From Escherichia phage vB_EcoM-pEB20, in the sequence record OP114733: a stretch of DNA of 64,000 bases; one strand, given 5' to 3'. The translations under genes were made by a program, and so were the position numbers. The notes under the pieces were generated by a model. It did no database searches and was not told the DNA's origin. It saw only the letters and a list, made by a program, of their open reading frames with translations. This document shows, piece after piece, positions 29,834 through 56,068 of this stretch. Position 1 is the stretch's first letter, and the number at the start of each line of letters is the position of its first letter.

Positions 29834-30045
29834 TGCTTGAAGGAACTGATTATATCCATGACTACCGCGGAAGCGCGGTATATGTAGGTGATGAAGTTGC
29901 AGTTTATTATGGGTATGGAACTTTGATGACAGCCAAGGTTATTCAAATTAAAAATAATCGTGCTAAACTCGAAGTTTATTATTCTAATGGCGAAAAGTCT
30001 ATTTCTAAATGGAAATACGGCGATTGCATGGTCAAACTGGGGTAA
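29830..30045 (+). CDS. hypothetical protein
   Basis: 71 aa ORF. Confidence 0.5.
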   Translation: MMLEGTDYIHDYRGSAVYVGDEVAVYYGYGTLMTAKVIQIKNNRAKLEVYYSNGEKSISKWKYGDCMVKLG

Positions 30046-30047
30046 AT

Positions 30048-30218
30048 ATGATTTACGATATTAGTGCAGCAAGAGCTCCATCAATGGTTACTATTCCTGT
30101 TGAAGAATTAGATCGTCTTCAGAAAATTGAAGAGCTTCTTTGGGAAATTGAATCTGATTTGCCATCTGGGCTAGAATCCTGGATTGATTATGAAGAACTT
30201 AATAAGCTCCGCGGTTAA
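30048..30218 (+). CDS. small hypothetical protein
   Basis: 56 aa from ATG 30048. Confidence 0.4.
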   Translation: MIYDISAARAPSMVTIPVEELDRLQKIEELLWEIESDLPSGLESWIDYEELNKLRG

Positions 30219-36426: not shown

Positions 36427-36650
36427 GCGTATTAACAGAAACTTTGATTAATGACCTGCGTCTAGCTGGTTACGAAGTTGGTACAAATAGCCTAGGTCTT
36501 CCTCAGATTGAAGGTCCTGGATTTATTCTAGAATATGAATTCAAACAATGGTGGTTATATGCTACGGTTGATGATGCGATGAATATTGATTTCGTCGACC
36601 AATTTGATTCGCTGGATGCTGCTCTTGAAGCAGCAAAGGAACTAGAATGA
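36423..36650 (+). CDS. small acidic hypothetical protein
   Basis: 75 aa; ATGA overlap. Confidence 0.45.
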   Translation: MSVLTETLINDLRLAGYEVGTNSLGLPQIEGPGFILEYEFKQWWLYATVDDAMNIDFVDQFDSLDAALEAAKELE

Positions 36651-36916
36651 AATTAACTCGAATCAGTATAACTGAAGAAAAGCTGGGCGAATTTTATGTT
36701 GACGAATACATGAAAGTTACGTATTTTCCATTCGTTAAAGGTGTTGGTTTTTGGGAAACTCATGTATCTCAATTAAACGAAGGCGACTATAACGAAACAC
36801 ATGAGAACTTTTTAGATTTTCTTTATAATGCCGGTCTTACTGAGCTTTATATCGATATCCATGAGTTCAAACGTTTAATGGAAAAAGTGTTTCAGGCTTA
36901 TTGTTTGCTCCGATAG
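36647..36916 (+). CDS. hypothetical protein
   Basis: 89 aa; ATGA overlap. Confidence 0.5.
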   Translation: MKLTRISITEEKLGEFYVDEYMKVTYFPFVKGVGFWETHVSQLNEGDYNETHENFLDFLYNAGLTELYIDIHEFKRLMEKVFQAYCLLR

Positions 36917-36988
36917 TATCTCGTGCTTTAAGATAGGTCTCTAAATATTATGATATAATAGACCTATGAATTGAGCCAAGAGGTACTT

Positions 36989-37546
36989 ATGACTGAACAA
37001 AAACCTAAAAATAACTATGTGAATAATAAAGAGCTTCTCGCCGCTATAATCGAGTGGAAAAAGGAGCTCTTAAATAATAAAGACCCAAACAAAATTATTC
37101 GTCAGAATGATACCATCGGTTTAGCAATTATGCTTATCGCCGAAGGCCTGTCCAAACGTTTCAACTTTTCAGGATATACCCAGTCTTGGAAGCAGGAGAT
37201 GATTGCAGATGGGATTGAAGCCTCTATTAAGGGACTTCATAATTTCGACGAAACTAAGTACAATAACCCACATGCATACATAACTCGAGCTTGTTTTAAT
37301 GCTTTTGTCCAACGTATCAAAAAAGAACGTAAGGAAGTTGCAAAGAAATACAGTTACTTCGTTCATAATGTCTACGACAGTCATGACGATGATATGGTAG
37401 CGTTGGTAGATGAAACGTTTATTCAAGACATCTACGATAAAATGACGCATTATGAAGAATCCGCTTATAAAGCTCCTGGGGCTGAAAAGAAGGAAGTTGT
37501 TAGCGATTCGCCTAGTTTGGATTTTTTATATGAGGATGACAATTGA
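36989..37546 (+). CDS. 55: late-transcription sigma factor gp55
   Basis: 185 aa [27 protein letters not shown]...; near-identical to T4 gp55 as recalled. Confidence 0.95.
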
Positions 37547-37745
37547 CATCTCTAACTACTTAGAAGAACCTTTTGACGAAGCAATCCCTTATTTGGTAAA
37601 ACTGTTGGGTCGGGAATTTAAAATTAATTTTGACATCGACCCTTTGAACCCACATGACGTGTCATTTTCGATAAATGGGACTCCGGTTGAGTATGAGTTC
37701 TGTATTGAAGAGGATGGACGTTTTTATTTTAATTTAATGAGATAA
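37536..37745 (+). CDS. small hypothetical protein
   Basis: About 69 aa; start ambiguous (37530 or 37536), weak RBS. Confidence 0.35.
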
Positions 37746-37746
37746 T

Positions 37747-38070
37747 ATGACTACCGAGATTATTGAAAATAAAGAAGCAGAAGATGCAGTAGCTAAAATG
37801 CTACAAGAAATCCAAAAGAAAAATGAAGCTGAAGCACGTAAAAAATCCGAAAAGATTCTTAAAAAGAATCGTTTTGAACTAAACCGTCTTTATGCTCATG
37901 CTCAAGAAGCAGCAATTCAAAACAACTTCGAAGCTTACGAATATGCTATTAAGAAATCTCGGGATATTCTACGACAACCATATAATGACAAGTTAATTAA
38001 AATCCAGTGGGTTACTACTCGTCAGGCTATTGAGGACATCATTAATGGCGCTAGTTCAAACAAAGTTTAA
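37747..38070 (+). CDS. hypothetical helical protein
   Basis: 107 aa ORF. Confidence 0.5.
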   Translation: MTTEIIENKEAEDAVAKMLQEIQKKNEAEARKKSEKILKKNRFELNRLYAHAQEAAIQNNFEAYEYAIKKSRDILRQPYNDKLIKIQWVTTRQAIEDIINGASSNKV

Positions 38071-38251
38071 ACGTCTGAAGCTGAACGCAGGGTTCACCCT
38101 TAAATTGGGAGGTCCTCTTTGTGTTAAAATTTCTGAAAAGGAATATCACGATGGTTCTATTACAGAAATTTGTCCGCCTATTGTAAAGGCAGACCCAAAA
38201 CAACTTGTGTGGGTTGATTCATTTCAAGTTAAGAAATGGTGGAAACGATGA
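38045..38251 (+). CDS. small hypothetical protein
   Basis: 68 aa from ATG 38045 (GAGGA SD). Confidence 0.4.
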   Translation: MALVQTKFKRLKLNAGFTLKLGGPLCVKISEKEYHDGSITEICPPIVKADPKQLVWVDSFQVKKWWKR

Positions 38252-38290
38252 GAGAAATTGATTTAGGCATTTTCTGAGAGGTGCTTATGC

Positions 38291-38464
38291 ATGACGAACA
38301 TCCCGACTTCTGAAAATTTCGATAAAATCCGTAAAGGCAAAGCAGAAAGAATGAGACGTTTTAAAGAGTCTTATGATAAAGCTAAAGCCGAAGGAACTAT
38401 TACGTACAAGCCCATTCGATTTAAAAGTTCAAATGAGCCTCTGTACGGTGTACTATGTGGATAG
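38291..38464 (+). CDS. small basic hypothetical protein (57 aa)
   Basis: ATG 38291 after GAGAGGTG; below track cut-off; followed by terminator. Confidence 0.35.
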   Translation: MTNIPTSENFDKIRKGKAERMRRFKESYDKAKAEGTITYKPIRFKSSNEPLYGVLCG

Positions 38465-38487
38465 GAACTCTTCGGAGTTCCTTTTTT
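38464..38487 (+). terminator. rho-independent terminator with UUCG tetraloop
   Basis: GGAACTC-TTCG-GAGTTCC + T6. Confidence 0.75.
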
Positions 38488-38510
38488 GCTTTATAAACGG
38501 ATGATAGAAT
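38487..38510 (+). promoter_or_regulatory. middle (MotA-type) promoter candidate for gene 47
   Basis: MotA box TGCTTTA at 38487, 11 nt, -10 TAGAAT at 38505. Confidence 0.5.
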
Positions 38511-38533
38511 GAATTAACTAATGAGGAAATAAT

Positions 38534-39553
38534 ATGAAAATTTTGCACTTAGGCGACTTCCATATCGGAGTCAAACAAGACGACCCATGGGTTCAAGATA
38601 TTCAACGTGATGGTATTCGTCAAGCAATTGAATACTCTAAGAAACACGGGATTAAAACTTGGATTCAGTACGGTGATTGGTTTGACGTCCGTAAAGCAAT
38701 AACACATCGTACAATGGAATTCAATCGTGAAATCGTTGATATGATTTCTAAAGCAGACATTCACGTTCATGTCACGATAGGAAACCATGACATGGCGTTT
38801 AAGAATACAATAACACCTAACACTGTTTCTGAATTGTTAACTCAATTTGAAAACTTTACTATTTACGAGCATCCGACTACTGTAGATTTTGATGGATGTC
38901 TGATTGATATCGTTCCATGGATGTGTGAAGAAAATACAGGTGAAATCTTAGAGCACATCAAGACTTCTTCTGCCGCATATTGTGTTGGTCACTGGGAATT
39001 AAATGGCTTCTATTTCTATAAAGGAATGAAGTCTCATGGGCTTGAACCTGATTTCTTAAAGACCTATAAACAAGTCTGGTCCGGCCACTTCCACACAATC
39101 TCTGAAGCTGCTAACGTCAAATATATTGGGACACCATGGACCCTTACTGCAGGCGATGAGAACGACCCACGCGGATTCTGGGTATTTGACACTGATGTTG
39201 AACATATGGAATTTATTCCTAATGAAACAACATGGCATCGACGAATCACTTATCCGTTTAAAGGCAAAATTAATTATTCTGATTATACTAATCTAGCCGT
39301 ACGTGTTATAGTATCAGAAATTGATTCAGAGTTGACTAAGTTTGAATCTGAACTTGAAAAAGTAGTTCACTCTCTTCGTATGGTTTCTAAAGTTGATAAC
39401 AGTGTTGAATCTGATGATGACCAGGAAATCGAGATTAAATCACTTCAAGATATCATTAAAGAATATATTGACGCGATTCCAGATATCTCAGACGAAGACA
39501 GAGAAGCGCTGGTCAAATATTCCAACGAACTTTATATTGAGGCAACACAATGA
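38534..39553 (+). CDS. 47: recombination nuclease subunit gp47 (Mre11-like)
   Basis: 339 aa; phosphoesterase motifs LGDFH, GDWFD, GNHD. Confidence 0.95.
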   Translation: MKILHLGDFHIGVKQDDPWVQDIQRDGIRQAIEYSKKHGIKTWIQYGDWFDVRKAITHRTMEFNREIVDMISKADIHVHVTIGNHDMAFKNTITPNTVSELLTQFENFTIYEHPTTVDFDGCLIDIVPWMCEENTGEILEHIKTSSAAYCVGHWELNGFYFYKGMKSHGLEPDFLKTYKQVWSGHFHTISEAANVKYIGTPWTLTAGDENDPRGFWVFDTDVEHMEFIPNETTWHRRITYPFKGKINYSDYTNLAVRVIVSEIDSELTKFESELEKVVHSLRMVSKVDNSVESDDDQEIEIKSLQDIIKEYIDAIPDISDEDREALVKYSNELYIEATQ

Positions 39554-39807
39554 CTTTAGATGAATTTAACAATGCTGGGCTCGGGCTTGAAGTTGAAATG
39601 GACGTTAAAGATGATGATGGATTCGAGAACACTATCAAGTATTGGATTGAACCATTACGTGTTGAAGGCAATGAAGTTAAAGCAGTTCATGTTTGTACCG
39701 ACTGGGCTATTGAATTTAGCTTTAATATAATGGACAATGATACTCCTGGCTCTATTCTTAAAATGGCTGAAGCGTGTATCGAGGATGCGTATAATGACGA
39801 AGACTGA
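39550..39807 (+). CDS. small acidic hypothetical protein
   Basis: 85 aa; ATGA overlap. Confidence 0.5.
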   Translation: MTLDEFNNAGLGLEVEMDVKDDDGFENTIKYWIEPLRVEGNEVKAVHVCTDWAIEFSFNIMDNDTPGSILKMAEACIEDAYNDED

Positions 39808-40033
39808 TTATGAAATCCATCGTCATGAATTTAGTATTGGTGACGGTTATATTGGTATTGTTGAATGGACTGAGAATTACGAGGAATCAACTCCTCGTTT
39901 CTTTGGAACAATGTATGTTACCTGTGAGTATGCACCAGGTGTTGTTATGTATGCAGAACTAGATGAGTATTTTGCTGATAGAGATGACATGTTAAAATAT
40001 GTAGAGGACTTCATTCGAAGAGAATACATATGA
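39794..40033 (+). CDS. hypothetical protein
   Basis: 79 aa from ATG 39794 (GAGGA SD). Confidence 0.5.
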   Translation: MTKTDYEIHRHEFSIGDGYIGIVEWTENYEESTPRFFGTMYVTCEYAPGVVMYAELDEYFADRDDMLKYVEDFIRREYI

Positions 40034-41718
40034 AATCATTTAAATTAAATCGTGTTCGTTATCAAAACATCATGTCGGTAGGTGGGAATCCTATTGATAT
40101 CCAATTAGATAAAGTCCAAAAGACATTAATCACTGGTAAAAATGGCGGTGGTAAATCTACGATGTTAGAAGCCATTACTTTCGGACTTTTCGGTAAACCA
40201 TTTCGTGATGTTAAGAAAGGACAAATCATTAATAGCACGAACAAGAAAGAGCTCTTAGTTGAGCTTTGGATGGAATTCGATGATAAAAAATACTTCATTA
40301 AACGTGGCCAAAAGCCCAATATTTTCGAAATCTCCGTTGACGGTGTTCGTCTTGATGAATCTGCCAGCAGTCGTGACTTCCAAGAAGAATTTGAACGTAG
40401 CATCGGAATGTCATACGCGTCTTTTAAACAAATCGTTGTGCTTGGGACGGCAGGGTATACCCCTTTCATGGCTCTTAGCACCCCTGCTCGTAGAAAACTT
40501 GTCGAAGACCTTTTAGAAGTAGGCACACTCGCTGAAATGGATAAAATCAATAAGTCTCAAGTTCGAGAACTTAATTCCCAGGGACAAGTTCTCGATGCCA
40601 AGAAAGATGGTGTTATCCAACAAATTAAGATTTATAATGAGAATATCGAACGTCAAAAGAAATTATCTGGTGATAATGTAGCGCGTCTACAGAATATGTA
40701 TGACGACCTAGCCAAAGAAGCTCGTTCATTAAAAGCAGAAATCGAAGAAGCTAATGAGCGACTACTTAATATCGTTCTTGATGAAGACCCTACTGAGGCA
40801 TTCAACAAGATAGGACAAGAAGCATTCTTGATTAAATCTAAAATCGACTCATATAACAAAGTTATTAAGATGTATCATGATGGCGGTACATGTCCTACTT
40901 GTGCATCACAGTTGCACCAGGGTGATCCTATTGTCTCTAAGATTACCGATAAGCTTCATGAATGTAATCACTCATTCGAGCAACTTACCTGTCACAGAGA
41001 TAATCTGAGTGTCCTAGTGGACGAATATAGAGCTAATGTTAAGACTAAACAGGACCTTGCATCTGATATTCGTACCAAGAAACAAGCAATGATTGCCACT
41101 ATTGATAAAGCTAAGAAAGTTAAAGCTGCAATAGAACAAGCCTCAGCAGAATTTATCGACCATGCCGATGAGATAGCTTTGCTTCAAAAAGAACTTGATA
41201 AAATCATTAAAACAAAATCGGATATCGTTCTTGAAAAATACCATCGTGGTATTATCACAGATATGTTAAAAGATTCTGGTATTAAAGGTGCTATCATTAA
41301 AAAATATGTGCCTCTGTTTAATAAGCAGATTAACCATTATCTTAAAATCATGGAAGCTGATTACGTGTTTTCTATTGATGAAGAATTCAATGAATCTATA
41401 AAATCACGTGGTCGTGAAGAGTTCAGTTATGCTTCATTTAGTCAAGGTGAAAAAGCACGTATCGATATTGCACTGTTGTTTACATGGCGAGATATTGCTG
41501 AAAAGGTCTCTGGTGTTAGAATCAATACATTAATTATGGACGAAGTCATGGATTCCGCGACTGATTCTGAAGGTATTAAAGCTATTTCAACAATTCTTAA
41601 CTCTCTAACCGATGCAAACGTGTTTATAATTAGTCACAGAGACCATGACCCACAAGCTTATGGACAACATCTTCAAATGAGCAAAGTTGGACGATTTACT
41701 GTAATGACTGTTTCATAA
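40030..41718 (+). CDS. 46: recombination ATPase gp46 (Rad50/SbcC-like)
   Basis: 562 aa; Walker A GKNGGGKST, zinc hook CPTC, Walker B LIMDEV. Confidence 0.95.
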   Translation: MKSFKLNRVRYQNIMSVGGNPIDIQLDKVQKTLITGKNGGGKSTMLEAITFGLFGKPFRDVKKGQIINSTNKKELLVELWMEFDDKKYFIKRGQKPNIFEISVDGVRLDESASSRDFQEEFERSIGMSYASFKQIVVLGTAGYTPFMALSTPARRKLVEDLLEVGTLAEMDKINKSQVRELNSQGQVLDAKKDGVIQQIKIYNENIERQKKLSGDNVARLQNMYDDLAKEARSLKAEIEEANERLLNIVLDEDPTEAFNKIGQEAFLIKSKIDSYNKVIKMYHDGGTCPTCASQLHQGDPIVSKITDKLHECNHSFEQLTCHRDNLSVLVDEYRANVKTKQDLASDIRTKKQAMIATIDKAKKVKAAIEQASAEFIDHADEIALLQKELDKIIKTKSDIVLEKYHRGIITDMLKDSGIKGAIIKKYVPLFNKQINHYLKIMEADYVFSIDEEFNESIKSRGREEFSYASFSQGEKARIDIALLFTWRDIAEKVSGVRINTLIMDEVMDSATDSEGIKAISTILNSLTDANVFIISHRDHDPQAYGQHLQMSKVGRFTVMTVS

Positions 41719-41720
41719 AC

Positions 41721-41744
41721 GCTTTAACACGATGTGGTTATAAT
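41721..41744 (+). promoter_or_regulatory. middle promoter candidate within IR GATGTGGT/ACCACATC
   Basis: GCTTTAA at 41721, 11 nt, TATAAT at 41739. Confidence 0.45.
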
Positions 41745-41772
41745 GACCACATCAAATTAAATGGAGAACAAC

Positions 41773-41961
41773 ATGGAGTATTCAACCGGACAACATCTTC
41801 TTGTTGTCCCTGAAATTAAAAAATATGTTTTGACCAATACGTTTTCAGGTGAAGAACATATTGTTACTGAACAAATGCTCAAATCTGCTTTTAAAGATGA
41901 GTATAATAAAATAATGTCTAATCGCAATTCCGCATGGACAGTTACCGACTTCTACGAATAA
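41773..41961 (+). CDS. small hypothetical protein
   Basis: 62 aa from ATG 41773. Confidence 0.45.
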   Translation: MEYSTGQHLLVVPEIKKYVLTNTFSGEEHIVTEQMLKSAFKDEYNKIMSNRNSAWTVTDFYE

Positions 41962-41973
41962 GAGAGAAATAAT

Positions 41974-42390
41974 ATGTTTACTACTGCTAAAGGTTTCACT
42001 GCTGCTGATCTGAAAGTTACTTCTATCCGTACTGACGCTAACCCACATAACCATAATCGTGTTCGTAAAGCATGGGTCCTGCATTGTGATGACGCAAGTG
42101 CTAAAAAGCTTCAATCTCTTCCACAAGAAACTCGTTTCATGATTTATGGCTTTATTGATAACGATGTGTCTGATATGTGGATTCATTTGATGCGTAAGCA
42201 CTATAAAGATTCTATCGAAGCAGGTGCTAAAATCGTTCTTGATAAAGACGGTTCTGAACGCCTTGAAGATTTTTACTGTGTTGATGCCGACGAACAACTA
42301 ATTGCAGCTGGCGAAATTGTTGCTTCTAAAATTCCAGAATATATTGAATCACTGCCTGAAGCTATTAAAAAGCAGATGGTTGCTGCATAA
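41974..42390 (+). CDS. rpbA: RNA polymerase binding protein RpbA-like (by position)
   Basis: 138 aa between 46 and 45 as T4 rpbA; sequence identity not verified. Confidence 0.55.
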   Translation: MFTTAKGFTAADLKVTSIRTDANPHNHNRVRKAWVLHCDDASAKKLQSLPQETRFMIYGFIDNDVSDMWIHLMRKHYKDSIEAGAKIVLDKDGSERLEDFYCVDADEQLIAAGEIVASKIPEYIESLPEAIKKQMVAA

Positions 42391-42432
42391 TAAATTTGTT
42401 ATAAACTTTGAATTGTCTTGAAAGGAAATAAA

Positions 42433-43119
42433 ATGAAACTGTCTAAAGATACTATCGCTATTCTGAAAAACTTCGCTTCTATTAACTCTGGCATCCTGCT
42501 GAGTCAAGGTAAATTTATTATGACTCGTGCAGTTAATGGCACCACTTACGCAGAAGCAAATATCTCTGATGAAATTGATTTTGACGTAGCACTTTATGAT
42601 TTGAATAGCTTCTTAAGCATTTTGAGTCTAGTGTCTGATGATGCTGAAATTTCAATGCACACCGATGGCAATATTAAAATTGCAGATACACGTTCTACTG
42701 TTTATTGGCCTGCCGCAGACAAGAGCACTATCGTGTTCCCGAATAAGCCAATTCAGTTCCCAGTAGCTTCCGTTATTACTGAAATTAAAGCTGAAGACCT
42801 CCAACAATTGCTCCGAGTTTCACGTGGACTGCAGATTGATACAATTGCTATTACAAATAAAGATGGTAAAATTGTTATCAATGGCTATAATAAAGTTGAA
42901 GATTCTGGACTAACTCGTCCTAAGTATTCTTTGACTCTTACCGATTATGATGGTTCTAACAACTTTAACTTCGTAATCAATATGGCTAATATGAAAATCC
43001 AGCCAGGTAACTATAAAGTAATGTTGTGGGGAGCTGGTGATAAAGTTGCAGCCAAGTTTGAAAGCTCTCAAGTAAGTTATGTTATTGCGATGGAAGCCGA
43101 TTCTACTCACGACTTCTAA
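42433..43119 (+). CDS. 45: sliding clamp gp45
   Basis: 228 aa MKLSKDTIAILKNFASINSGILL...; near-identical to T4 gp45 as recalled. Confidence 0.95.
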   Translation: MKLSKDTIAILKNFASINSGILLSQGKFIMTRAVNGTTYAEANISDEIDFDVALYDLNSFLSILSLVSDDAEISMHTDGNIKIADTRSTVYWPAADKSTIVFPNKPIQFPVASVITEIKAEDLQQLLRVSRGLQIDTIAITNKDGKIVINGYNKVEDSGLTRPKYSLTLTDYDGSNNFNFVINMANMKIQPGNYKVMLWGAGDKVAAKFESSQVSYVIAMEADSTHDF

Positions 43120-43194
43120 GTCAAAGCTTTACGTTTATTGTGATACGATTATGGAGGAGAAATCCTCCAGTTTAATGATAATGAGGAAAATTAC

Positions 43195-44157
43195 ATGATT
43201 ACTATCAATTCCAAAGAACACATTCTAGAACAGAAATATCGTCCTTCTTCCATTGACGAATGTATTCTGCCTGCGTATGACCATGAAACATTCAAGTCTT
43301 TAGTATCTAAAGGAAAACTTCCTCATATTATTTTACACTCTCCATCTCCTGGTACCGGTAAAACAACCGTGGCAAAAGCATTATGTAACGATATCAACGC
43401 TGAAATGATGTTCGTCAACGGTTCTGATTGTAAAATTGATTTTGTACGTGGTCCGTTAACTGCATTCGCTCGTTCAGTCTCAATGGAAGGCAAGCCGAAA
43501 GTTATCGTTATCGATGAATTTGACCGTAGTGGCCTTGCTGAATCACAACGGCACCTTCGTACGTTTATGGAAGAATTCTCTAGTAACTGTTCTATTATTA
43601 TTACTGCCAACAACATCGATGGAATTATCGAACCGTTACGTAGTCGTTGTCGAGTTATCGAATTCGGACGTCCAACCGAAGAAGATAAAATCTCAATGAT
43701 GAAGAAAATGATTCATCGCATGGTTGAAATCTGTAAGAACGAAAATATCGAAATCGCTGATATGAAAGTTGTTGCAGCTCTGGTTAAAAAGAACTTCCCA
43801 GACTTTCGTCGTACAATTGGCCAATTAGACCAGTACTCGTCTAAAGGTGTTCTTGATGCGGGTATTTTGTCGATTGTAACCAATGATCGTGGCACGGTAG
43901 ATGATGTCATAGAAGCAATGAAAAATAAAGATATCAAACAGCTTCGTGCATTAGCTCCAAAATATGCCGCTGATTATTCATGGTTCATCGATAAATTAGT
44001 TTCTGAGTGTTATGACAAAGTTGCACCGGGTAAAAGTATTATTTCGCTTTACGAAATTGCAGGCGAAAATAATAAGTTTCATGGGCTAGCTAGTAATATT
44101 GAATTACATGTTATGTATATGCTTCTTCAATTGACTTGTGAATTGACTTGGAAATAA
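43195..44157 (+). CDS. 44: clamp loader large subunit gp44
   Basis: 320 aa AAA+; Walker [10 protein letters not shown], Walker B VIVIDEFD. Confidence 0.95.
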
Positions 44158-44158
44158 T

Positions 44159-44722
44159 ATGAACTTATTTGATGATGACGTCCAACTTAACGAGCACCAA
44201 ATCGCATGGAAGTCTAATGACGCTGATGCGATTCAAAAATGTGCTGATATGTTTAAAGAAAAACCTGAGAATGAATTCTTTAAAATCATTAATGCTATTA
44301 ATGAAAAGAAATCTATGTCAATTGCTCAGGTTGACTACTCAAAATTTATGGTTGAGAACTCATTATCCCAGTTCCCGGAATGTATGCCTGCAGTTTACAT
44401 GATGAACTTGGTCGGCTCTGAATTAAGCGATGAAGCACACTTCAACTACATGATGGCCGCCATTCCGCGTGGTCGTCGATTCTCTAAATGGGCTAAACTA
44501 GTTGAAGACACTTCAGAGTTACTAGTTATCAAACTGTTGATGAAACATTACATAATCAACATGAATGATGCCACCGAGTATAAGCGGCTCCTTGAAAAAA
44601 ATAACAAGTTGCCAATAGTCCTTAAAGAACTGAAGGCCATGGTCACTGATGAGTTTCTCAAAGAAGTTACAAAAAATGTGAAAGAACAAAAACAATTTAA
44701 AAAATTAGCATTGGAATGGTAA
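44159..44722 (+). CDS. 62: clamp loader small subunit gp62
   Basis: 187 aa; position between 44 and regA. Confidence 0.9.
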
Positions 44723-44724
44723 AA

Positions 44725-45093
44725 ATGATTGAAATTAAATTGAAGAACCCTGAAGATTTTCTGAAAGTCAAAGAGACTTTGACCCGTATGGGCATCGCTA
44801 ATAACAAGGATAAAGTCCTTTATCAGTCCTGTCATATCCTCCAAAAGCAAGGTAAATATTACATCGTCCACTTTAAAGAAATGCTGCGAATGGACGGACG
44901 TCAGGTTGATATTGATGGTGAAGACTATCAGCGACGTGATTCGATTGCTCAGTTGCTTGAAGACTGGGGATTGATTGTTATTGAAGACTCTGCTCGTGAA
45001 GATCTGTTTGGCCTGACTAATAACTTCCGTGTTATCTCTTTTAAACAGAAAGATGACTGGACTTTGAAAGCAAAATATACAATTGGTAATTAA
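44725..45093 (+). CDS. regA: translational repressor RegA
   Basis: 122 aa MIEIKLKNPEDFLKVKETLTRMGIANNKDKVLYQSCHILQK; near-identical to T4 RegA. Confidence 0.9.
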   Translation: MIEIKLKNPEDFLKVKETLTRMGIANNKDKVLYQSCHILQKQGKYYIVHFKEMLRMDGRQVDIDGEDYQRRDSIAQLLEDWGLIVIEDSAREDLFGLTNNFRVISFKQKDDWTLKAKYTIGN

Positions 45094-45097
45094 AGCA

Positions 45098-45118
45098 ATG
45101 GGACTTCGGTCCCATTTG
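45098..45118 (+). terminator. hairpin with UUCG tetraloop (terminator/RNA stability element)
   Basis: ATGGGAC-TTCG-GTCCCAT then TTGG. Confidence 0.5.
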
Positions 45119-45174
45119 GAGTATAATAAGTTCATCAACAAACAAAAGACAATAACTCGTCTAAAGGAAATTAA

Positions 45175-47886
45175 ATGAAAGAATTTTACTTAACGGTTGA
45201 ACAGATTGGTGATTCAATTTTTGAACGTTACATCGATTCTAATGGCCGTGAACGTACTCGTGAAGTAGAATATAAACCATCACTGTTTGCTCATTGTCCA
45301 GAAAGTCAGGCTACAAAATATTTCGATATCTACGGTAAGCCGTGTACTCGTAAGTTGTTCGCTAATATGCGTGATGCCTCCCAATGGATTAAACGCATGG
45401 AAGATATCGGACTTGAAGCACTTGGCATGGACGATTTCAAATTGGCGTATTTGTCTGACACTTATAACTATGAAATCAAATACGACCATACAAAAATTCG
45501 TGTGGCTAACTTCGACATCGAAGTAACATCTCCGGACGGGTTCCCTGAGCCGTCACAAGCAAAACATCCGATTGATGCTATCACCCATTATGACTCAATT
45601 GACGACAGGTTCTACGTATTTGATCTATTGAATTCTCCATATGGTAATGTAGAAGAATGGTCTATTGAAATCGCTGCTAAGCTTCAAGAACAAGGTGGTG
45701 ATGAAGTTCCATCTGAAATTATCGATAAAATCATTTATATGCCGTTCGATAGCGAAAAAGAATTGTTGATGGAATATCTCAACTTCTGGCAACAGAAAAC
45801 TCCTGTCATTTTGACTGGATGGAACGTTGAGTCATTTGATATTCCATATGTGTATAACCGAATCAAGAATATTTTTGGCGAATCTACTGCGAAACGTTTA
45901 TCACCACATCGTAAAACTCGTGTTAAAGTTATCGAAAACATGTATGGTTCTCGTGAAATCATTACATTGTTCGGTATCTCTGTTCTTGATTACATTGACC
46001 TTTACAAAAAATTCTCTTTTACCAATCAACCGTCGTATTCTCTGGATTACATTTCAGAATTTGAATTGAACGTTGGTAAACTGAAATATGACGGCCCTAT
46101 TTCTAAGCTTCGTGAAAGCAATCACCAACGATATATTTCTTATAACATTATCGACGTGTATCGTGTATTGCAAATTGATGCTAAGCGTCAGTTCATCAAC
46201 TTGAGCTTGGACATGGGTTATTATGCTAAGATACAGATTCAATCTGTGTTCAGCCCAATTAAAACATGGGATGCCATTATTTTTAATAGCCTTAAAGAGC
46301 AGAACAAGGTGATTCCACAAGGTCGTTCTCACCCGGTTCAACCTTATCCTGGCGCTTTTGTTAAGGAACCTATTCCAAATCGATACAAATATGTAATGAG
46401 TTTCGACCTTACATCTCTGTATCCAAGTATTATTCGCCAAGTGAATATTAGCCCGGAAACAATAGCAGGAACGTTTAAAGTAGCTCCACTGCATGATTAT
46501 ATTAACGCTGTTGCTGAACGTCCTTCAGATGTGTACAGTTGTTCTCCTAACGGCATGATGTATTATAAAGACCGTGATGGTGTAGTTCCAACTGAAATCA
46601 CTAAGGTCTTTAATCAACGTAAAGAACATAAAGGTTACATGCTTGCAGCTCAACGTAATGGTGAAATAATTAAAGAGGCATTGCATAATCCTAATCTTTC
46701 TGTTGACGAACCATTAGATGTTGATTATCGTTTCGACTTCAGCGATGAGATTAAAGAAAAGATTAAAAAGTTGTCTGCTAAATCTCTTAATGAAATGTTG
46801 TTTAGAGCTCAACGTACTGAAGTTGCAGGTATGACTGCACAAATTAACCGTAAATTGCTCATCAACTCACTTTATGGTGCACTTGGAAACGTTTGGTTCC
46901 GTTATTATGATTTGCGTAATGCTACTGCAATCACAACATTCGGGCAAATGGCTTTACAGTGGATTGAACGTAAAGTTAATGAATATCTGAATGAGGTTTG
47001 TGGTACAGAAGGCGAAGCTTTCGTTCTATATGGTGATACAGACTCCATTTACGTATCTGCAGATAAAATTATTGATAAGGTTGGTGAATCTAAATTCCGT
47101 GATACCAACCATTGGGTAGACTTCTTAGATAAGTTCGCTCGTGAACGTATGGAACCAGCTATTGATAGAGGTTTCCGTGAAATGTGTGAATACATGAACA
47201 ATAAACAACACTTAATGTTCATGGACCGAGAAGCTATCGCTGGGCCTCCGCTCGGTTCTAAAGGTATTGGTGGATTCTGGACTGGTAAGAAACGTTATGC
47301 ATTAAACGTGTGGGATATGGAAGGTACTCGTTACGCTGAGCCTAAACTCAAAATCATGGGTCTCGAAACACAGAAATCTTCGACTCCTAAAGCAGTACAG
47401 AAAGCTCTTAAGGAATGTATTCGTCGTATGCTTCAAGAAGGTGAAGAATCATTACAAGAATATTTTAAAGAGTTTGAAAAAGAATTCCGTCAATTGAATT
47501 ATATTAGCATCGCGTCGGTATCTTCTGCGAATAACATTGCTAAATATGACGTCGGTGGATTCCCTGGCCCCAAATGTCCGTTCCATATTCGTGGAATTCT
47601 GACATATAACCGGGCTATCAAAGGTAATATTGATGCTCCACAAGTTGTAGAAGGTGAAAAAGTATATGTTCTGCCTTTACGTGAAGGAAACCCATTCGGT
47701 GATAAATGTATCGCATGGCCTTCTGGTACTGAAATCACAGATTTAATTAAAGACGACGTACTTCATTGGATGGACTACACTGTTCTCCTTGAGAAGACAT
47801 TTATTAAACCACTTGAAGGATTCACATCAGCAGCGAAACTCGATTACGAGAAGAAAGCATCTCTGTTCGATATGTTCGATTTTTGA
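45175..47886 (+). CDS. 43: DNA polymerase gp43 (B family)
   Basis: 903 aa; exo motifs FDIEV, YNIIDV; pol motifs DLTSLYPSII, KILINSLYGALG, YGDTDS; matches RB69 polymerase as recalled; no intein/intron. Confidence 0.97.
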   Translation: MKEFYLTVEQIGDSIFERYIDSNGRERTREVEYKPSLFAHCPESQATKYFDIYGKPCTRKLFANMRDASQWIKRMEDIGLEALGMDDFKLAYLSDTYNYEIKYDHTKIRVANFDIEVTSPDGFPEPSQAKHPIDAITHYDSIDDRFYVFDLLNSPYGNVEEWSIEIAAKLQEQGGDEVPSEIIDKIIYMPFDSEKELLMEYLNFWQQKTPVILTGWNVESFDIPYVYNRIKNIFGESTAKRLSPHRKTRVKVIENMYGSREIITLFGISVLDYIDLYKKFSFTNQPSYSLDYISEFELNVGKLKYDGPISKLRESNHQRYISYNIIDVYRVLQIDAKRQFINLSLDMGYYAKIQIQSVFSPIKTWDAIIFNSLKEQNKVIPQGRSHPVQPYPGAFVKEPIPNRYKYVMSFDLTSLYPSIIRQVNISPETIAGTFKVAPLHDYINAVAERPSDVYSCSPNGMMYYKDRDGVVPTEITKVFNQRKEHKGYMLAAQRNGEIIKEALHNPNLSVDEPLDVDYRFDFSDEIKEKIKKLSAKSLNEMLFRAQRTEVAGMTAQINRKLLINSLYGALGNVWFRYYDLRNATAITTFGQMALQWIERKVNEYLNEVCGTEGEAFVLYGDTDSIYVSADKIIDKVGESKFRDTNHWVDFLDKFARERMEPAIDRGFREMCEYMNNKQHLMFMDREAIAGPPLGSKGIGGFWTGKKRYALNVWDMEGTRYAEPKLKIMGLETQKSSTPKAVQKALKECIRRMLQEGEESLQEYFKEFEKEFRQLNYISIASVSSANNIAKYDVGGFPGPKCPFHIRGILTYNRAIKGNIDAPQVVEGEKVYVLPLREGNPFGDKCIAWPSGTEITDLIKDDVLHWMDYTVLLEKTFIKPLEGFTSAAKLDYEKKASLFDMFDF

Positions 47887-47926
47887 TATAATGTCATGGA
47901 CGGTAAACTAATTAAATGAGAGAAAT

Positions 47927-48562
47927 ATGAAAACTACTCCTATTACTATCGCTATTGACGCAATTATAAAACAAGCTTCTTCTTTGGCCGCTATGGCCAA
48001 AGTAATTAGTCAAAACCCTGCTCGTTATAATGCTATTCTAGAAACTCTTCGACGCCCTGGACTTAGTAATTATGAAAGCCGGGTAATTATTACAGGTGTT
48101 GGTAAGAATGCTAATATCGCAACTAAAGCTTCCGAGACTTTTGCTTCACTCGGTATCCCGAGTATGTACTTGAACACTGGGCATTATTCTCACGGTGATG
48201 CAGGATTCATTGCGCCTAATGATGTGTTGATTCATATTAGTCGTTCTGGTAAAACTGAAGAAATGATAGGCGTGGCTAAGCATCTTAAAATGATTCGTCC
48301 GAATGTCAAACAGATTCTGTTGCATTGTAACCCAGACATTCCACAAGAAAATGAAGCCCTTTTTGATTACTCTTTCTGTACAGGCATCGCGGTAGAGGTT
48401 GATGAGAATTCTCTGGCTCCGACTATGTCCACTACATTGTTGTTAGCGCTTATCGATACGTTTGCTATCAACCTTTCGTCTGAGCGTGGATTTACCTCTA
48501 ATGACTTCCTTAAGTTCCATCCAGGCGGTGCACTAGGTGCCATGTTACGAGGCGAACAATGA
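47927..48562 (+). CDS. SIS-domain sugar-phosphate isomerase (arabinose-5-phosphate isomerase-like, KdsD/GutQ family)
   Basis: 211 aa; GVGKNANIATKASETFASLG, HGD, LAPTMSTT and HPGGALG motifs align with the KdsD SIS domain; no CBS domains. Confidence 0.8.
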   Translation: MKTTPITIAIDAIIKQASSLAAMAKVISQNPARYNAILETLRRPGLSNYESRVIITGVGKNANIATKASETFASLGIPSMYLNTGHYSHGDAGFIAPNDVLIHISRSGKTEEMIGVAKHLKMIRPNVKQILLHCNPDIPQENEALFDYSFCTGIAVEVDENSLAPTMSTTLLLALIDTFAINLSSERGFTSNDFLKFHPGGALGAMLRGEQ

Positions 48563-48743
48563 AAGCAATAACAATAGGACTTTTACTATTGATGCTTGTC
48601 ATGACTATCTACTGGAGCTTAACGGCTCCAGTAATGATTCCAACACTTGTAATTGGATGGATTATGATTGGACTACAAGCAAAGTATGAATGCTTTAACT
48701 AGAATAGTGTACAATACTCCTACTTACCAATGAGGACTTCAAC

Positions 48744-50429
48744 ATGAAAAAAGCTGTTATTCTTGGTGCTGGACTGGCAACTCGTTTGTATCCAATAACG
48801 CACCATATTCCTAAGGTGCTTGTTAACTATAAACAAGACACTATTCTAAGCAATTTGTATACAATTTATTCTGACCTTGGCGCAGATGAAATTATTGTAG
48901 TAGTTCATTCAAAATTTGCTGAAACTGTTCGAGCTTATTGTGAGCAAGAAGGGTTCAATGTGACTATTCGTACAGTTGATGAAGCGTATGGTTCTGCTTA
49001 TGCTCTTGCTAAATTACACAAAGATTTAGACGGCCATAATGTAATTGTTAACTGGTGTGATATTATTCCTGATTTTGGTTCATGGTCTTGGAATGTTAAC
49101 GCAATCTATGTTAAGGGTGACGAATGTCGATATAATTTCGACGGTGAAAATATCACTAACGTAGGTTCAACAGGTGGTAATGTTGTAGGAATTTATCAGT
49201 TCAAAGACTGGGAATTCTATATGGGTTCTACTGATGAGGAAATTCATGAATACTGCAAAGGACGTGATTTCGTAGAATTCCTTTACGGCAGCGCATTCAA
49301 TAAATCAGAGCTTATGAATCTAATTGATTTAGGTGATATGCCTAAACTTGAAAAAGCTCATGAAGTTCGTGAACTTAATCGTAGTTTTAATGCAGTTGAA
49401 ATTGGTGAAGAAACTGTAACTAAATTCGCATTAACCGAACAGGGTCGAGCTCTTCAGAAAGATGAGATTTCATGGTATCTTAAAGTGAAATCAGATTCAG
49501 TTCCTCAGTTAGTTTCGGTAAATGAAAATAATTTTGAAATGGAACGTATTAAAGGTAAGCCGGCATTTGAATATATTAAATCCAAATCAAGTCTTGCTCG
49601 TCCACAAATTGTTGATGCAATTTTAGATGCACTGAAATTCAGCACAGACACTTATTTTGTAAGTCCTGAAACTGTTCGTCGTGATTTCACTAAAGAGTTC
49701 TATACGAAAGTTATTGATCGTTGTGAAAGCATTCAACCATTGATTGATTCATTTGGTAAAATCACACATGTGAACTACACTAAGATTGGACGTCTGAAGC
49801 CAATGCTGAAACAAGCTTTAGAACACCTTATTCGTTATCATAACCGTTCTCAGGGACAGTACTCTGTTATTCATGGTGACCCGAACTTCAGTAATACTAT
49901 GATTACTGATAACGGCGAAGTCAAGTTTATAGACCCTCGTGGATATTTTGGCGAAACCAAGATTTATGGGCCAAAATTGTATGATGAAGCTAAAGTGCTT
50001 TATGCTGTTTCAGGATATGATGAATTCAATGCTAATCCGACCTGGGGACAGTTTACTATTGATGAAACAACTTGTAATGTGACTATTAACATCAATCCAT
50101 TAGTTTACAAATATGGAAAGATGAGTTCGTTTAACGAGTATCATCATTTGGCTGTAGCAATTATCTGGATTGCATTAGGTGGTTATTTCAAGAATAATCC
50201 ACTTAAAGCGGTAGCCGCATATTATAAAGGTATGGAACTTCTGACTAAGCAATTACGTAACATGGGCCGTGTACTTCAGGACGGCTCTATTAGTTATGAC
50301 GTAGCAGAACCTGTAACGGCTACTCTGATTACAAAAAATCCTGGTAAATGGGTACTAACTGATAAAGAAACCGGTGTTTCCTATCGTCCAATCGGTGGCG
50401 ATATCACTCATCAATGGGAACGAATTTAA
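48744..50429 (+). CDS. bifunctional sugar-1-phosphate nucleotidyltransferase / kinase-like protein
   Basis: 561 aa; N-terminal GAGLATRLYP (RmlA/GlmU-type NTase); C-terminal HGDPNFSN...D.E resembles APH/choline-kinase fold. Confidence 0.7.
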   Translation: MKKAVILGAGLATRLYPITHHIPKVLVNYKQDTILSNLYTIYSDLGADEIIVVVHSKFAETVRAYCEQEGFNVTIRTVDEAYGSAYALAKLHKDLDGHNVIVNWCDIIPDFGSWSWNVNAIYVKGDECRYNFDGENITNVGSTGGNVVGIYQFKDWEFYMGSTDEEIHEYCKGRDFVEFLYGSAFNKSELMNLIDLGDMPKLEKAHEVRELNRSFNAVEIGEETVTKFALTEQGRALQKDEISWYLKVKSDSVPQLVSVNENNFEMERIKGKPAFEYIKSKSSLARPQIVDAILDALKFSTDTYFVSPETVRRDFTKEFYTKVIDRCESIQPLIDSFGKITHVNYTKIGRLKPMLKQALEHLIRYHNRSQGQYSVIHGDPNFSNTMITDNGEVKFIDPRGYFGETKIYGPKLYDEAKVLYAVSGYDEFNANPTWGQFTIDETTCNVTININPLVYKYGKMSSFNEYHHLAVAIIWIALGGYFKNNPLKAVAAYYKGMELLTKQLRNMGRVLQDGSISYDVAEPVTATLITKNPGKWVLTDKETGVSYRPIGGDITHQWERI

Positions 50430-50794
50430 TGCAACTATGCTTCGATGTCGATGATTGTATAACCGAATGGAATAACAATCGTGATTACGCTAATTTTAAA
50501 CCGGACCTAGAAATGGTGGCAGCCATTAATGCCTTGTATGACGCAGGGCATACCATCACGCTTTACACTGCTCGTGGTATGAAGTCTGTAGGTCCTGGAC
50601 GTATTGCTGTAGATATCCTACCAGGTCTGTTACAGAACTTAGCTAACATTGGTTTGAAGTATCATAATTTGCTAACACATAAACCAGTATATGATTGGAT
50701 TATCGACGACAAAGCTATGCGTCCTGACGAATTCAAAGCTCTTATGAATAAAGGCGAATTCGAAACATTTAAATCATATAAACCAAATCTATAA
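50429..50794 (+). CDS. HAD-superfamily phosphatase-like protein
   Basis: About 121 aa; motif I FDVDDCIT; start 50429 (TAATG overlap) or 50414. Confidence 0.6.
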   Translation: MQLCFDVDDCITEWNNNRDYANFKPDLEMVAAINALYDAGHTITLYTARGMKSVGPGRIAVDILPGLLQNLANIGLKYHNLLTHKPVYDWIIDDKAMRPDEFKALMNKGEFETFKSYKPNL

Positions 50795-50840
50795 TAATTT
50801 AAGTAAGACCTGCAAAAACCGTCGCATCAATTAACGCGAG

Positions 50841-52010
50841 ATGCAAAAAATGAATACTTTTAAAATTGGAACGAATTTCGATTTAGCTCTTCTTGATAAA
50901 ATCGTAGAGCTCAATAAAACTTATCCTAATAGCTTGATAAATGAAGTATACGGCTCTACAAGAGAAATGGCTTTTGTAGCAGCCAGACCTGATTTTAGGC
51001 TTCCTGACGTTGACAAAAAGATGTTAGAAGACTACGTTAAACGTTGTAACGAATTAGGTATTTGCTTTAACTATACACTCAACACGATAAATCCTGGTTC
51101 AAAAAGAGAACTAGTTGAGTGGAAGAAGAAAGCTATTCAGGATTATGTTCAGTATCTTTGGTCAATAGGCGTATGGCGTATTACTATCGCTAACCCTGTT
51201 GTTATGGAAATTGTTCGTGAAGTCAATAAAGACATTGAGATTGAAGTTTCAACAATTCTACATGTCGATGCTGTAACTCAAATCAAATACTTGCATGACC
51301 AGTATAATATCAAAAAGGTCTGCTGTGGAATTCATAAGAACCGTTCAGTTTCTTTCCTGAAGCGTGCAGCAGAGTTTTGCAATAAGAACAATATAATATT
51401 TGAAGTTCTTGTAAATGAGTTCTGTTCTAATGCTGGTAAAGGGTATACAACACATTGTAGCTATCGTGACTCTTGCTATATTTTCCATAGTACTGATGTT
51501 ACAGCTGATGATGCTAAATCCTTAAACGGATATCCTATGCAGCACTGTATTAAAGCTCGTGATACAGACCCATTTAACTGGTTGAGAACTCGTTTTGTTC
51601 GTCCTCAAGATTTGAAACTTTATAATGATATTGGTATCACTCAATTTAAAGTTTCAGGACGTACAGGTAGCACAGACTACATTTTGAAAGTTCTTGAAGC
51701 ATACGCTTCTGAAAAGTTTGAAGGTAATTTGTTAGAACTGTGGAAGCCTTTAGAGACTATTTTCACTCTTGAAAACGAAACTGAGTTTTCACATACGGTA
51801 AATATTGAAACCTCTTTGTTAGACGGCTTTTTAGAAAAAAGGTGGTTCAGACATCCAGATTTCGATTGTGCTAATGAAATCTGCGGGACGACGTGTACAT
51901 ATTGTGAAAGATATTATAAACGTCAGTTATCTAAAAATGGGTTATCAGAAAACTCTATATCTATTATTGATATAACTAACTCTGATGACGCTTTGAGGTA
52001 CCCGGAATGA
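50841..52010 (+). CDS. peptidase U32-family-like protein (putative Fe-S dependent enzyme)
   Basis: 389 aa; EVLVNEFCSNAGKG and QFKVSGRTGSTDYI resemble U32 signature regions; C-terminal Cys cluster C-x4-C-x3-C-x2-C; assignment tentative. Confidence 0.5.
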   Translation: MQKMNTFKIGTNFDLALLDKIVELNKTYPNSLINEVYGSTREMAFVAARPDFRLPDVDKKMLEDYVKRCNELGICFNYTLNTINPGSKRELVEWKKKAIQDYVQYLWSIGVWRITIANPVVMEIVREVNKDIEIEVSTILHVDAVTQIKYLHDQYNIKKVCCGIHKNRSVSFLKRAAEFCNKNNIIFEVLVNEFCSNAGKGYTTHCSYRDSCYIFHSTDVTADDAKSLNGYPMQHCIKARDTDPFNWLRTRFVRPQDLKLYNDIGITQFKVSGRTGSTDYILKVLEAYASEKFEGNLLELWKPLETIFTLENETEFSHTVNIETSLLDGFLEKRWFRHPDFDCANEICGTTCTYCERYYKRQLSKNGLSENSISIIDITNSDDALRYPE

Positions 52011-52246: not shown

Positions 52247-52288
52247 GCTTTACGAATTGAGTATATAATAAATTGTATTGAGGTAAAC

Positions 52289-53904: not shown

Positions 53905-53905
53905 A

Positions 53906-56059: not shown

Positions 56060-56068
56060 GGAGTTATC

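Follow-up and report, generated by a model that had tools for sequence, protein, structure and literature searches.

The interval between genes 55 and 47 of Escherichia phage vB_EcoM-pEB20 is very probably the normal, a-gt-less form of this region in a Mosigvirus, a lineage without glucosylated hmC. We analysed a 64 000-nucleotide stretch of the genome (record OP114733; the window). What we observed directly is how similar the sequences are and which homologues are missing; the chemistry is carried over from published work on RB69, to which the relevant proteins are 93–100% identical. The combination in RB69-type phages of an arabinose module with a lack of a-gt, b-gt and ba-gt was already published in 2018 (PMC6024577), the chemistry was revised in 2026 (PMC13326640), and this 55–47 layout can already be read from the annotation of the RB69 record (AY303349/NC_004928). 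The features of the interval and of the genes bounding it are as follows:

36989–37546, + strand: gene 55, late-transcription sigma factor, 185 aa (PHROG late sigma factor, E = 4e-68)
37530–37745, + strand: a-gt.5 orthologue, 71 aa (Pfam DUF5491, E = 5.5e-13; 46% identical to T4 a-gt.5, 100% to RB69 a-gt.5)
37747–38070, + strand: a-gt.4 orthologue, 107 aa (Pfam DUF2654, E = 1e-27; 58% to T4 a-gt.4, 100% to RB69)
38045–38251, + strand: a-gt.3 orthologue, 68 aa (PHROG 1648, E = 1.6e-34; no Pfam match; 71% to T4 a-gt.3, 100% to RB69)
38291–38464, + strand: a-gt.2 orthologue, 57 aa (Pfam DUF5486, E = 4.5e-28; 76% to T4 a-gt.2, 95% to RB69)
38463–38488, + strand: intrinsic-terminator-like hairpin plus T6 (terminator scan; 8-bp stem, UUCG loop)
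38487–38510, + strand: MotA-box (TGCTTTA) middle-promoter motif with a −10 TAGAAT, N11 between them, 24 nt 5' of the gene 47 ATG (motif-level)
38534–39553, + strand: gene 47, SbcD/Mre11-like nuclease subunit, 339 aa (PHROG 100, E = 2.7e-134; Pfam Metallophos; 99.4% to RB69 gp47)

The interval measures 989 bp and is filled by exactly four small genes (71, 107, 68 and 57 aa), all on the + strand, in the T4 order a-gt.5, a-gt.4, a-gt.3, a-gt.2, and all with PHROG family matches (E = 8e-24 to 7e-37). The initial annotation had described four ORFs of 57–107 aa and no a-gt-sized gene between 55 and 47, and both statements held, as did its placing of a roughly 400-aa a-gt between these genes in T4, where the order is a-gt.2, mobB, a-gt (400 aa), 47.1, 47. 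The mobB, a-gt and 47.1 genes of T4 are all absent from the interval in the window. The interval is too small to hold a 1203-bp a-gt gene and, since its only non-coding gaps are of 39 and 69 bp, there is no space even for an a-gt remnant. Gene 55 has the ATG start and 185-aa length of RB69 gp55, with 99.5% amino acid identity to that protein and 89% to T4 gp55. As in T4, a-gt.5 starts inside the end of gene 55, and the two share 17 nt; the annotated start gives the 71-aa product and a longest-ORF reading 97 aa, and the counterpart in mar005P1 carries the annotation a-gt.5-like. An Rfam scan of 36500–39000 returned no RNA family at E ≤ 1, and a repeat search of 36800–39000 gave only short matches at chance level.

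The names a-gt.5, a-gt.4, a-gt.3 and a-gt.2 reflect position only. Because these genes are kept across phages with glucose, arabinose and other cytosine chemistries, we infer that they are small early/middle genes independent of a-gt and not tied to glucosylation. A literature search on a-gt.2 to a-gt.5 gave one incidental mention and no functional data.

By nucleotide identity and synteny, the phage belongs to Mosigvirus (the RB69-like T-even phages). The window is 97.6% identical to RB69 across 20 kb in one piece; across the 2.7-kb interval it is 99.1% identical to NBG1 and likewise to mar005P1, and 93.7–98.4% (mostly 95–98%) identical to NBG1 over its whole length. About 150 phage records have this 20-kb layout at ≥95% identity. 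In RB69 (NC_004928) the genes RB69p066–p071 (47, a-gt.2, a-gt.3, a-gt.4, a-gt.5, 55) follow the gene order of the window, and gp55, a-gt.5, a-gt.4, a-gt.3 and gp47 are 99–100% identical at the amino acid level (a-gt.2, 95%). The 69-bp spacer, with its hairpin and MotA box, differs from that of RB69 by one base: the −10 hexamer is TAGAAT in the window and TAAAAT in RB69. Two genes that sequencing errors break up in the record of RB69 (its 46/47 and 52/53) are each a single intact ORF in the window. Given the ~97.6% nucleotide identity over 20 kb, the phage is a separate isolate or species within the genus of RB69.

The 69-bp spacer after a-gt.2 is the site of the UUCG-loop hairpin, the T-run and the MotA-box motif. 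At the motif level, this agrees with the terminator and MotA-type promoter previously proposed for the interval (hairpin-T6 at 38463–38488, box at 38487–38510). The hairpin stem, AGGAACTC / GAGTTCCT, encloses a TTCG loop at 38463–38482 with TTTTTT directly 3'; a folding energy of −13.9 kcal/mol (z = −2.9) was computed for it. A GC-containing hairpin followed by a U-run is what characterises an intrinsic (Rho-independent) terminator, and the element can be classed as a putative one; the record of NBG1, a near-identical phage, annotates a terminator at the equivalent spot. The adjoining motif has the consensus of a MotA-dependent middle promoter (box TGCTT(T/C)A near −30, 11–13 bp, TAnnnT) and is a candidate for one. 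The window has 11 matches to TGCTTYA-N11-13-TANNNT where 1.7 are expected (a count of 11 was reached in none of 100 shuffles), and eight of the 11 lie on the gene-sense (+) strand. A strong hairpin immediately precedes just one of these eight, the match at 38487, and there the hairpin with its T-run and the MotA box share two bases. The motA locus lies outside the window; the complete genome of the relative NBG1 has an annotated motA gene. Judging from the motifs, the UUCG-loop hairpin and U-run would most likely stop or stabilise the upstream transcript, and the MotA-box promoter would most likely restart transcription into 47, 46.2, 46.1 and 46.

The hairpin/MotA-box unit is conserved in position in RB69, JS98, RB27/T4, Mineola and CC31; across five genera the hairpins at this slot differ in sequence while their stems stay complementary. 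Composite terminator–promoter cassettes (PeSL and PmSL) are known in T4-like phages (Arbiol et al. 2010, PMC2839356; Comeau et al. 2014, PMC4122927). Like these, the unit in the window consists of a stem-loop and then a Mot-box promoter motif ('PmSL'), and lies at a boundary of gene presence and absence (the a-gt indel). In its sequence features it thus corresponds to the composite-cassette definition of a PmSL/PeSL (stem-loop plus promoter at an indel boundary). Unlike this locus, those described in the PeSL/PmSL papers are mainly in hyperplastic regions of the RB49/phi1, PST/T4 and nt-1/KVP40 pairs; Comeau et al. 2014 (PMC4122927) make no mention of RB69.

We compared the slot between genera. 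In T4, genes 55, a-gt.5, a-gt.4, a-gt.3 and a-gt.2 and genes 47, 46.2, 46.1 and 46 have the same order and orientation as in the window, and a hairpin and MotA-box unit likewise follows a-gt.2. T4 has in addition mobB (a homing endonuclease), a-gt, a second hairpin/promoter unit and 47.1, and RB27 has a-gt, the second unit and 47.1; all of them are missing from the window. The Dhakavirus JS98 resembles the window in lacking a-gt at the slot and in that the gene which follows is preceded by the hairpin/MotA-box unit; it differs in retaining 47.1, and it also has RB69-like arabinose-module genes. The Karamvirus CC31 again lacks a-gt at the slot and has the unit but, unlike the window, carries an unrelated 82-aa ORF in place of a-gt.2 and has b-gt and a ba-gt-like gene adjoining gene 42. 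As CC31 combines an empty a-gt slot with a glucosyl-type gene set, an empty slot alone is not diagnostic of non-glucosylation.

How the slot came to be empty is a historical question, and its answers are compatible with the phage having the normal Mosigvirus layout. One possible history, though on balance a doubtful one, is that a-gt was present here in the ancestor shared by Tequatrovirus and Mosigvirus and that the Mosigvirus line deleted it on switching to arabinosylation, possibly by recombination between flanking hairpin/promoter cassettes, two copies of which surround a-gt in T4 and RB27. The gene occupies the equivalent slot in Tequatrovirus and also in Jiaodavirus (Mineola), which is more distant, and its T4–Mineola identity (64–66%) is close to that of the flanking core genes (67–76%), which suggests long residence at the site; Mosigvirus is moreover nearer to T4 (75–89%) than Mineola is. 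However, JS98 and CC31 also lack a-gt, so that loss would take three events, where two gains would suffice, as would a single gain combined with a lateral transfer. In the window and in JS98, the single unit aligns over its full length with the upstream unit of T4, and insertion of a-gt together with a downstream unit fits this equally well; the junction sequences are short and their alignment gives a mixed signal on gain versus loss. A bolder proposal, which we consider unlikely, is that the unit at 38463–38510 is a mobile 'PmSL' cassette at which recombination gained or lost a-gt and so switched the DNA-modification type of T-even phages. The pattern bearing on it is that two units bracket a-gt in T4 and RB27, and that Mosigvirus, Dhakavirus and Karamvirus have one unit at the empty slot.

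We searched the window for a glucosyltransferase gene and used NBG1, a complete relative with ~97% identity, as a stand-in for the ~105 kb of the genome beyond it. In the tblastn check called for by the initial annotation (a-gt and b-gt), here with RB27 ba-gt as a further query, the best E-values over the window and the NBG1 genome were 0.01–0.05, on ORFs that are not glycosyltransferases. By query, T4 a-gt gave a best E of 0.011–0.05, on such ORFs; T4 b-gt gave 1.9 at word size 2 and no match at E ≤ 1 at default settings; and RB27 ba-gt gave 0.85. Small HMMs of the three families, run against 984 six-frame ORFs from the window and NBG1, reached a best E of only ~0.8 (a-gt, 0.8; b-gt, 0.77; ba-gt, 2.7). 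As positive controls, Pfam assigned T4 a-gt to AGT (PF11440, E = 3e-260), b-gt to T4-Gluco-transf (PF09198) and ba-gt to TAGT (PF20691); the 299-aa glycosyltransferase of the window and the ORF003c homologue of NBG1 match nothing in Pfam.

The following candidates were rejected. The a-gt tblastn matches at 23931–24170 (E = 0.011, word size 2; a 333-aa ORF with weak P-loop/HTH Pfam matches) and 7099–7278 (E = 0.054, word size 2; a 207-aa hypothetical ORF) are due to chance, with HMM E-values of about 0.9–1 at both sites. The large ORFs of the nrdC region (21.9–28.9 kb), considered as hidden glycosyltransferases, match an RlaP-like nucleotidyltransferase, DUF7235 or nothing in Pfam.

In place of a glucosylation gene set, the window carries homologues of the RB69-type genes for arabinosyl-5-hydroxycytosine:

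47927–48562, + strand: arabinose-5-phosphate isomerase (RB69 gp55 homologue), first gene of the module (100% to RB69p055; Pfam SIS; PHROG, E = 4e-116)
48744–50429, + strand: bifunctional nucleotidyltransferase/kinase (RB69 gp52:53 homologue), an intact 561-aa ORF (99.5–99.7% to RB69p053/p052; Pfam NTP_transferase and weak kinase matches)
50414–50794, + strand: HAD-like sugar phosphatase (RB69 gp51 homologue; 93% to RB69p051; PHROG 1238)
50841–52010, + strand: U32-peptidase-like protein (RB69 gp50 homologue; 99.7% to RB69p050; Pfam Peptidase_U32, E = 7e-11)
52289–53005, + strand: thymidylate-synthase homologue (RB69 gp48 homologue) at the gene 42 position (99.2% to RB69p048; Pfam Thymidylat_synt)
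53005–53904, + strand: GT-B fold glycosyltransferase, 299 aa (RB69 gp46:47 homologue, proposed first arabinosyltransferase), in the b-gt slot of T4
53906–54454, + strand: thymidylate-kinase-like nucleotide kinase (RB69 gp45 homologue; 97% to RB69p045; PHROG thymidylate kinase, E = 8.5e-45)
62309–62845: dCTPase-like gene

The module proteins are 93–100% identical to RB69 gp55–gp45 and lie in unchanged order between gene 43 and uvsX. This strengthens the earlier alternative-sugar reading of 47927–54454, as the match is to the published arabinosyl-cytosine pathway. Arabinose was chemically demonstrated in RB69 DNA (Thomas et al. 2018, PMC6024577), and measurements, on RB69 alone, identified mono- and di-arabinosyl-5-hydroxycytosine in its DNA, the glycosylated base being 5-hydroxycytosine and not hmC (Lee et al. 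2026, PMC13326640). In the same work RB69 gp48 was demonstrated experimentally to be a 5-hydroxy-dCMP synthase, and the other pathway steps were assigned from structure models and analogy to phage HY126, with roles proposed on this basis for gp52:53 (from AfhE) and gp51 (from AfhF); the arabinosyltransferases were proposed to be gp46:47 and gp3, and single DLP3 glycosyltransferases showed no activity on 5hoC DNA (PMC13326640). By extension, the lineage would replace cytosine using the divergent thymidylate-synthase homologue at 52289–53005 (RB69 gp48 type, producing 5-hydroxy-dCMP), which has only 25% identity to T4 gp42. The genes at 47927–50794 are predicted to build an activated arabinose donor, and arabinose would be transferred by GT-B enzymes: the 53005–53904 product and an ORF003c-type enzyme encoded beyond the window. 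In NBG1 this second transferase type (RB69 ORF003c/gp3) adjoins rIIA (NBG1_003, 366 aa), outside the region covered by the window. The structure model of the 53005–53904 protein (pLDDT 94.4) has a predicted GT-B fold, that of a-gt and b-gt, and the kinship is at the level of fold only: the sole match of the family profile against the PDB was spurious (E = 0.32), and the relation is visible only by fold comparison.

The initial annotation had concluded from the empty slot that the phage does not glucosylate hmC. The conclusion gains from the absence of glucosyltransferase homologues and the presence of the arabinose module; what does not stand is the empty slot as evidence by itself, and the base reported for RB69 is 5-hydroxycytosine rather than hmC. 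A glucosyltransferase gene relocated outside the window, in a phage that still glucosylates hmC, is very improbable. There is room for it in the ~105 kb of genome beyond the window, and other genera do place such genes elsewhere (b-gt and ba-gt next to gene 42 in CC31). However, the b-gt/ba-gt site of T4 (gene 42–uvsX) is inside the window and is taken by the RB69 gp46:47 and gp45 homologues; the complete NBG1 genome is negative by tblastn and HMM; and BlastP found a-gt, b-gt and ba-gt absent from RB69 (Thomas et al. 2018, PMC6024577). Furthermore, hmC would be the wrong substrate, since the gene 42 homologue is of the 5hodCMP-synthase type (PMC13326640). An isolate-specific or laboratory deletion of a-gt from a T4-like glucosylating phage, conceivable because the two similar hairpin-plus-MotA-box units bracketing a-gt in T4 and RB27 could recombine, is effectively refuted by the same junction (one base different) in RB69, the homologous junction in another genus (Dhakavirus JS98), ~150 independent isolates with this layout, and flanking genes only 75–89% identical to those of T4, which indicate a separate lineage and not a T4 deletion mutant.

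Its reading as a Mosigvirus with the normal a-gt-less layout places this phage among the arabinosylating, non-glucosylating relatives of the T-even phages. To the picture known from RB69 our analysis adds that an empty a-gt slot is no proof of non-glucosylation, that the a-gt.x genes appear to be independent of a-gt, and that conserved putative terminator/middle-promoter cassettes bound the slot. The placement predicts how the DNA would respond to restriction enzymes, type IV systems, CRISPR nucleases and T4-specific tools, and these predicted responses bear on host range, phage therapy and cloning.

The T4 gene order is 55, a-gt.5, a-gt.4, a-gt.3, a-gt.2, mobB, a-gt (400 aa), 47.1, 47. Where T4 has mobB, a-gt and 47.1 between a-gt.2 and 47, the window has a 69-bp gap, and the only other non-coding gap in the interval is 39 bp:

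36989-37546, gene 55
37530-37745, + strand, a-gt.5 (71 aa; 46% identity to T4 orthologue)
37747-38070, + strand, a-gt.4 (107 aa; 58% identity to T4 orthologue)
38045-38251, + strand, a-gt.3 (68 aa; 71% identity to T4 orthologue)
38291-38464, + strand, a-gt.2 (57 aa; 76% identity to T4 orthologue)
38463-38510, hairpin/MotA-box unit
38534-39553, gene 47

The initial annotation had reported four short ORFs, a terminator and a MotA-type promoter here, with no gene the size of T4's ~400-aa a-gt, and each element was recovered. All four ORFs matched PHROG families (E 8e-24 to 7e-37) and three matched Pfam DUF5491, DUF2654 and DUF5486 (E 5.5e-13 to 4.5e-28). Given these family matches and the conserved T4 order, a-gt.5, a-gt.4, a-gt.3 and a-gt.2 are genuine genes and not ORFs that arose by chance. 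Scanning the interval for Rfam families and for repeats added nothing. These genes are retained across modification types, except that an unrelated small ORF takes the place of a-gt.2 in Mineola and CC31; since they persist whatever the modification, their names are positional and a functional dependence on a-gt is unlikely. The replacement in Mineola (L010 3174-3431) and CC31 (L011 14304-14552) is a protein of 82-85 aa, 52% identical between the two phages and 17-22% identical to a-gt.2 of T4, RB69 and JS98; despite that low identity, the Mineola protein is annotated 'a-gt.2 like'.

The 69-bp gap carries the hairpin AGGAACTC-TTCG-GAGTTCCT followed by TTTTTT (folding energy -13.9 kcal/mol, z -2.9), at a position annotated as a terminator in NBG1, a complete related Mosigvirus genome. 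Overlapping the hairpin tail is the promoter motif TGCTTTA-N11-TAGAAT (38487-38510), a MotA-box pattern with 11 occurrences in the window where 1.7 would be expected (0/100 shuffles reached 11). Five genera have the unit in the slot between a-gt.2 and 47, with TTCG or TTAG loops. The contents of the slot and the unit positions in the comparison loci were:

RB27 (Tequatrovirus): a-gt and 47.1, no mobB; units at L008 12931-13003 and 14200-14246
Mineola (Jiaodavirus): a-gt, no 47.1; unit at L010 4690-4772
JS98 (Dhakavirus): 47.1, no a-gt, with RB69-like module genes; unit at L012 16895-16975
CC31 (Karamvirus): no a-gt, with b-gt and a ba-gt-like gene adjoining gene 42; unit at L011 14194-14310

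The stems vary in sequence between genera yet remain fully complementary, and this speaks for a structural role that has been conserved. In T4 and RB27 two units bracket a-gt, the upstream one preceding mobB in T4 and a-gt in RB27, and the downstream one being more divergent; the window, RB69, JS98 and CC31 have a single unit. The arrangement resembles the composite 'promoter-middle stem-loop' cassettes that Comeau et al. 2014 (PMC4122927) associated with the gain and loss of genes among T4-like phages. The hairpin may end or stabilise transcripts arriving from gene 55 and the a-gt.x genes, and the MotA-box promoter would re-initiate middle transcription into 47, 46.2, 46.1 and 46. In T4 (L002 12585-12628) and RB27 (L008 14200-14246), the -10 hexamer TATAAT of the unit 3' of a-gt overlaps the 47.1 ATG, and therefore a transcript begun there could not serve to translate 47.1, a gene absent from the window.

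Empty a-gt slots are common and by themselves no evidence against glucosylation, since CC31 has b-gt and a ba-gt-like gene despite its empty slot. As to history, a-gt identity between T4 and Mineola (64-66%) is close to that of flanking core genes (67-76%), and T4 has a closer relative in Mosigvirus (75-89%) than in Mineola, which hints at an old gene later lost in Mosigvirus. Against this, two other genera also lack a-gt and, with junction sequences too short, the direction (gain or loss) is undecided.

Glucosyltransferases were also sought elsewhere, with NBG1 standing in for the rest of the isolate's genome. Using tblastn, T4 a-gt, T4 b-gt and RB27 ba-gt gave nothing better than E = 0.01-0.05 in the 64-kb window or NBG1. 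Two weak a-gt matches fell in a P-loop/HTH-like ORF and a hypothetical ORF. HMMs built on the small number of sequences at hand for each family gave a best E of about 0.8 against 984 six-frame ORFs from both sequences. Pfam recognised all three T4/T2 glucosyltransferases as positive controls and found no match in the window's transferase or the NBG1 ORF003c homologue. The absence refers to the window and the complete NBG1; the isolate's own genome runs on for roughly another 105 kb. RB69 likewise lacks these enzymes by BlastP (Thomas et al. 2018, PMC6024577). Across the phage collection, a-gt occurred in 657 records and b-gt in 126; 40 a-gt records sampled across the ranking came from T4-like coliphages and Klebsiella phages. 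The nrdC region encodes a 329-aa RlaP-like nucleotidyltransferase of the RNA-repair-pathway pol-beta family (22384-23373), adjoined by a 333-aa ORF (23784-24785) with weak P-loop NTPase and HTH matches.

NBG1 and mar005P1 (Mosigvirus) are 99% identical in nucleotide sequence to the 2.7 kb around the interval, and RB69 and MM02 match 36900-56900 (20 kb) as a single piece at 97.6%; in the latter search, 148 phage records reached a query coverage of at least 80% and 155 fell between 95 and 99% identity. Complete NBG1 aligns to the window in blocks of 93.7-98.4% identity, interrupted by a few indels that have no match. By these nucleotide identities, the window belongs to an RB69-like T-even phage, shown on the strand where early and middle genes are sense. 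Stretches with no blastn match to the ~97% identical NBG1 (~1873-2500, 4851-5368, 16777-16979 and 29834-30081) presumably reflect mosaicism on a small scale, by insertion or replacement, of the kind typical of hyperplastic regions in T4-like phages.

Between gene 43 and uvsX, 47927-54454 encodes homologues of RB69 gp55, gp54, gp52:53, gp51, gp50, gp49, gp48, gp46:47 and gp45 in the same order (93-100% amino acid identity). The domain matches agree with this assignment and comprise a SIS-domain arabinose-5-phosphate isomerase, a nucleotidyltransferase with a kinase-like C-terminal half, a HAD-like protein, a thymidylate-synthase homologue, a thymidylate-kinase-like protein and the gp50 homologue, a U32-peptidase-like protein (389 aa, 50841-52010) that the JS98 module appears to lack. 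The pairs p052/p053 and p046/p047, split in the RB69 record by sequencing errors according to published work, are intact here (48744-50429, 561 aa; 53005-53904, 299 aa). A dCTPase-like gene lies at 62309-62845. The 299-aa protein, modelled from a 41-homologue alignment drawn from arabinosylating phages of several genera, has a GT-B fold (pLDDT 94.4), so that on this model the protein in T4's b-gt slot is related to a-gt at the level of fold but is orthologous to neither a-gt nor b-gt. A second proposed transferase (RB69 ORF003c type) adjoins rIIA in NBG1, outside the window.

At the gene 42 position, the thymidylate-synthase homologue (52289-53005) is 99% identical to RB69 gp48 and 25% to T4 gp42 (dCMP hydroxymethylase); related phages' public records still label this gene 'dCMP hydroxymethylase'. 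Recent work established RB69 gp48 as a flavin-associated 5-hydroxy-dCMP synthase. Lee et al. 2026 (PMC13326640) report that it makes 5-hydroxy-dCMP and that RB69 DNA contains mono- and di-arabinosyl-5-hydroxycytosine, revising the 2018 arabinosyl-hmC assignment. The proposal of an alternative sugar in place of hmC glucosylation is supported, with refinements. What decides the matter is that all three transferase families are absent and the arabinose module is present; the empty slot by itself is undiagnostic, and the RB69 base is reported to be 5-hydroxycytosine. By analogy with the RB69 chemistry and gp48 activity, the isolate's DNA would be modified like that of RB69. The feature is of low interest, because it has been described before for RB69-type phages and is common to about 150 sequenced genomes.
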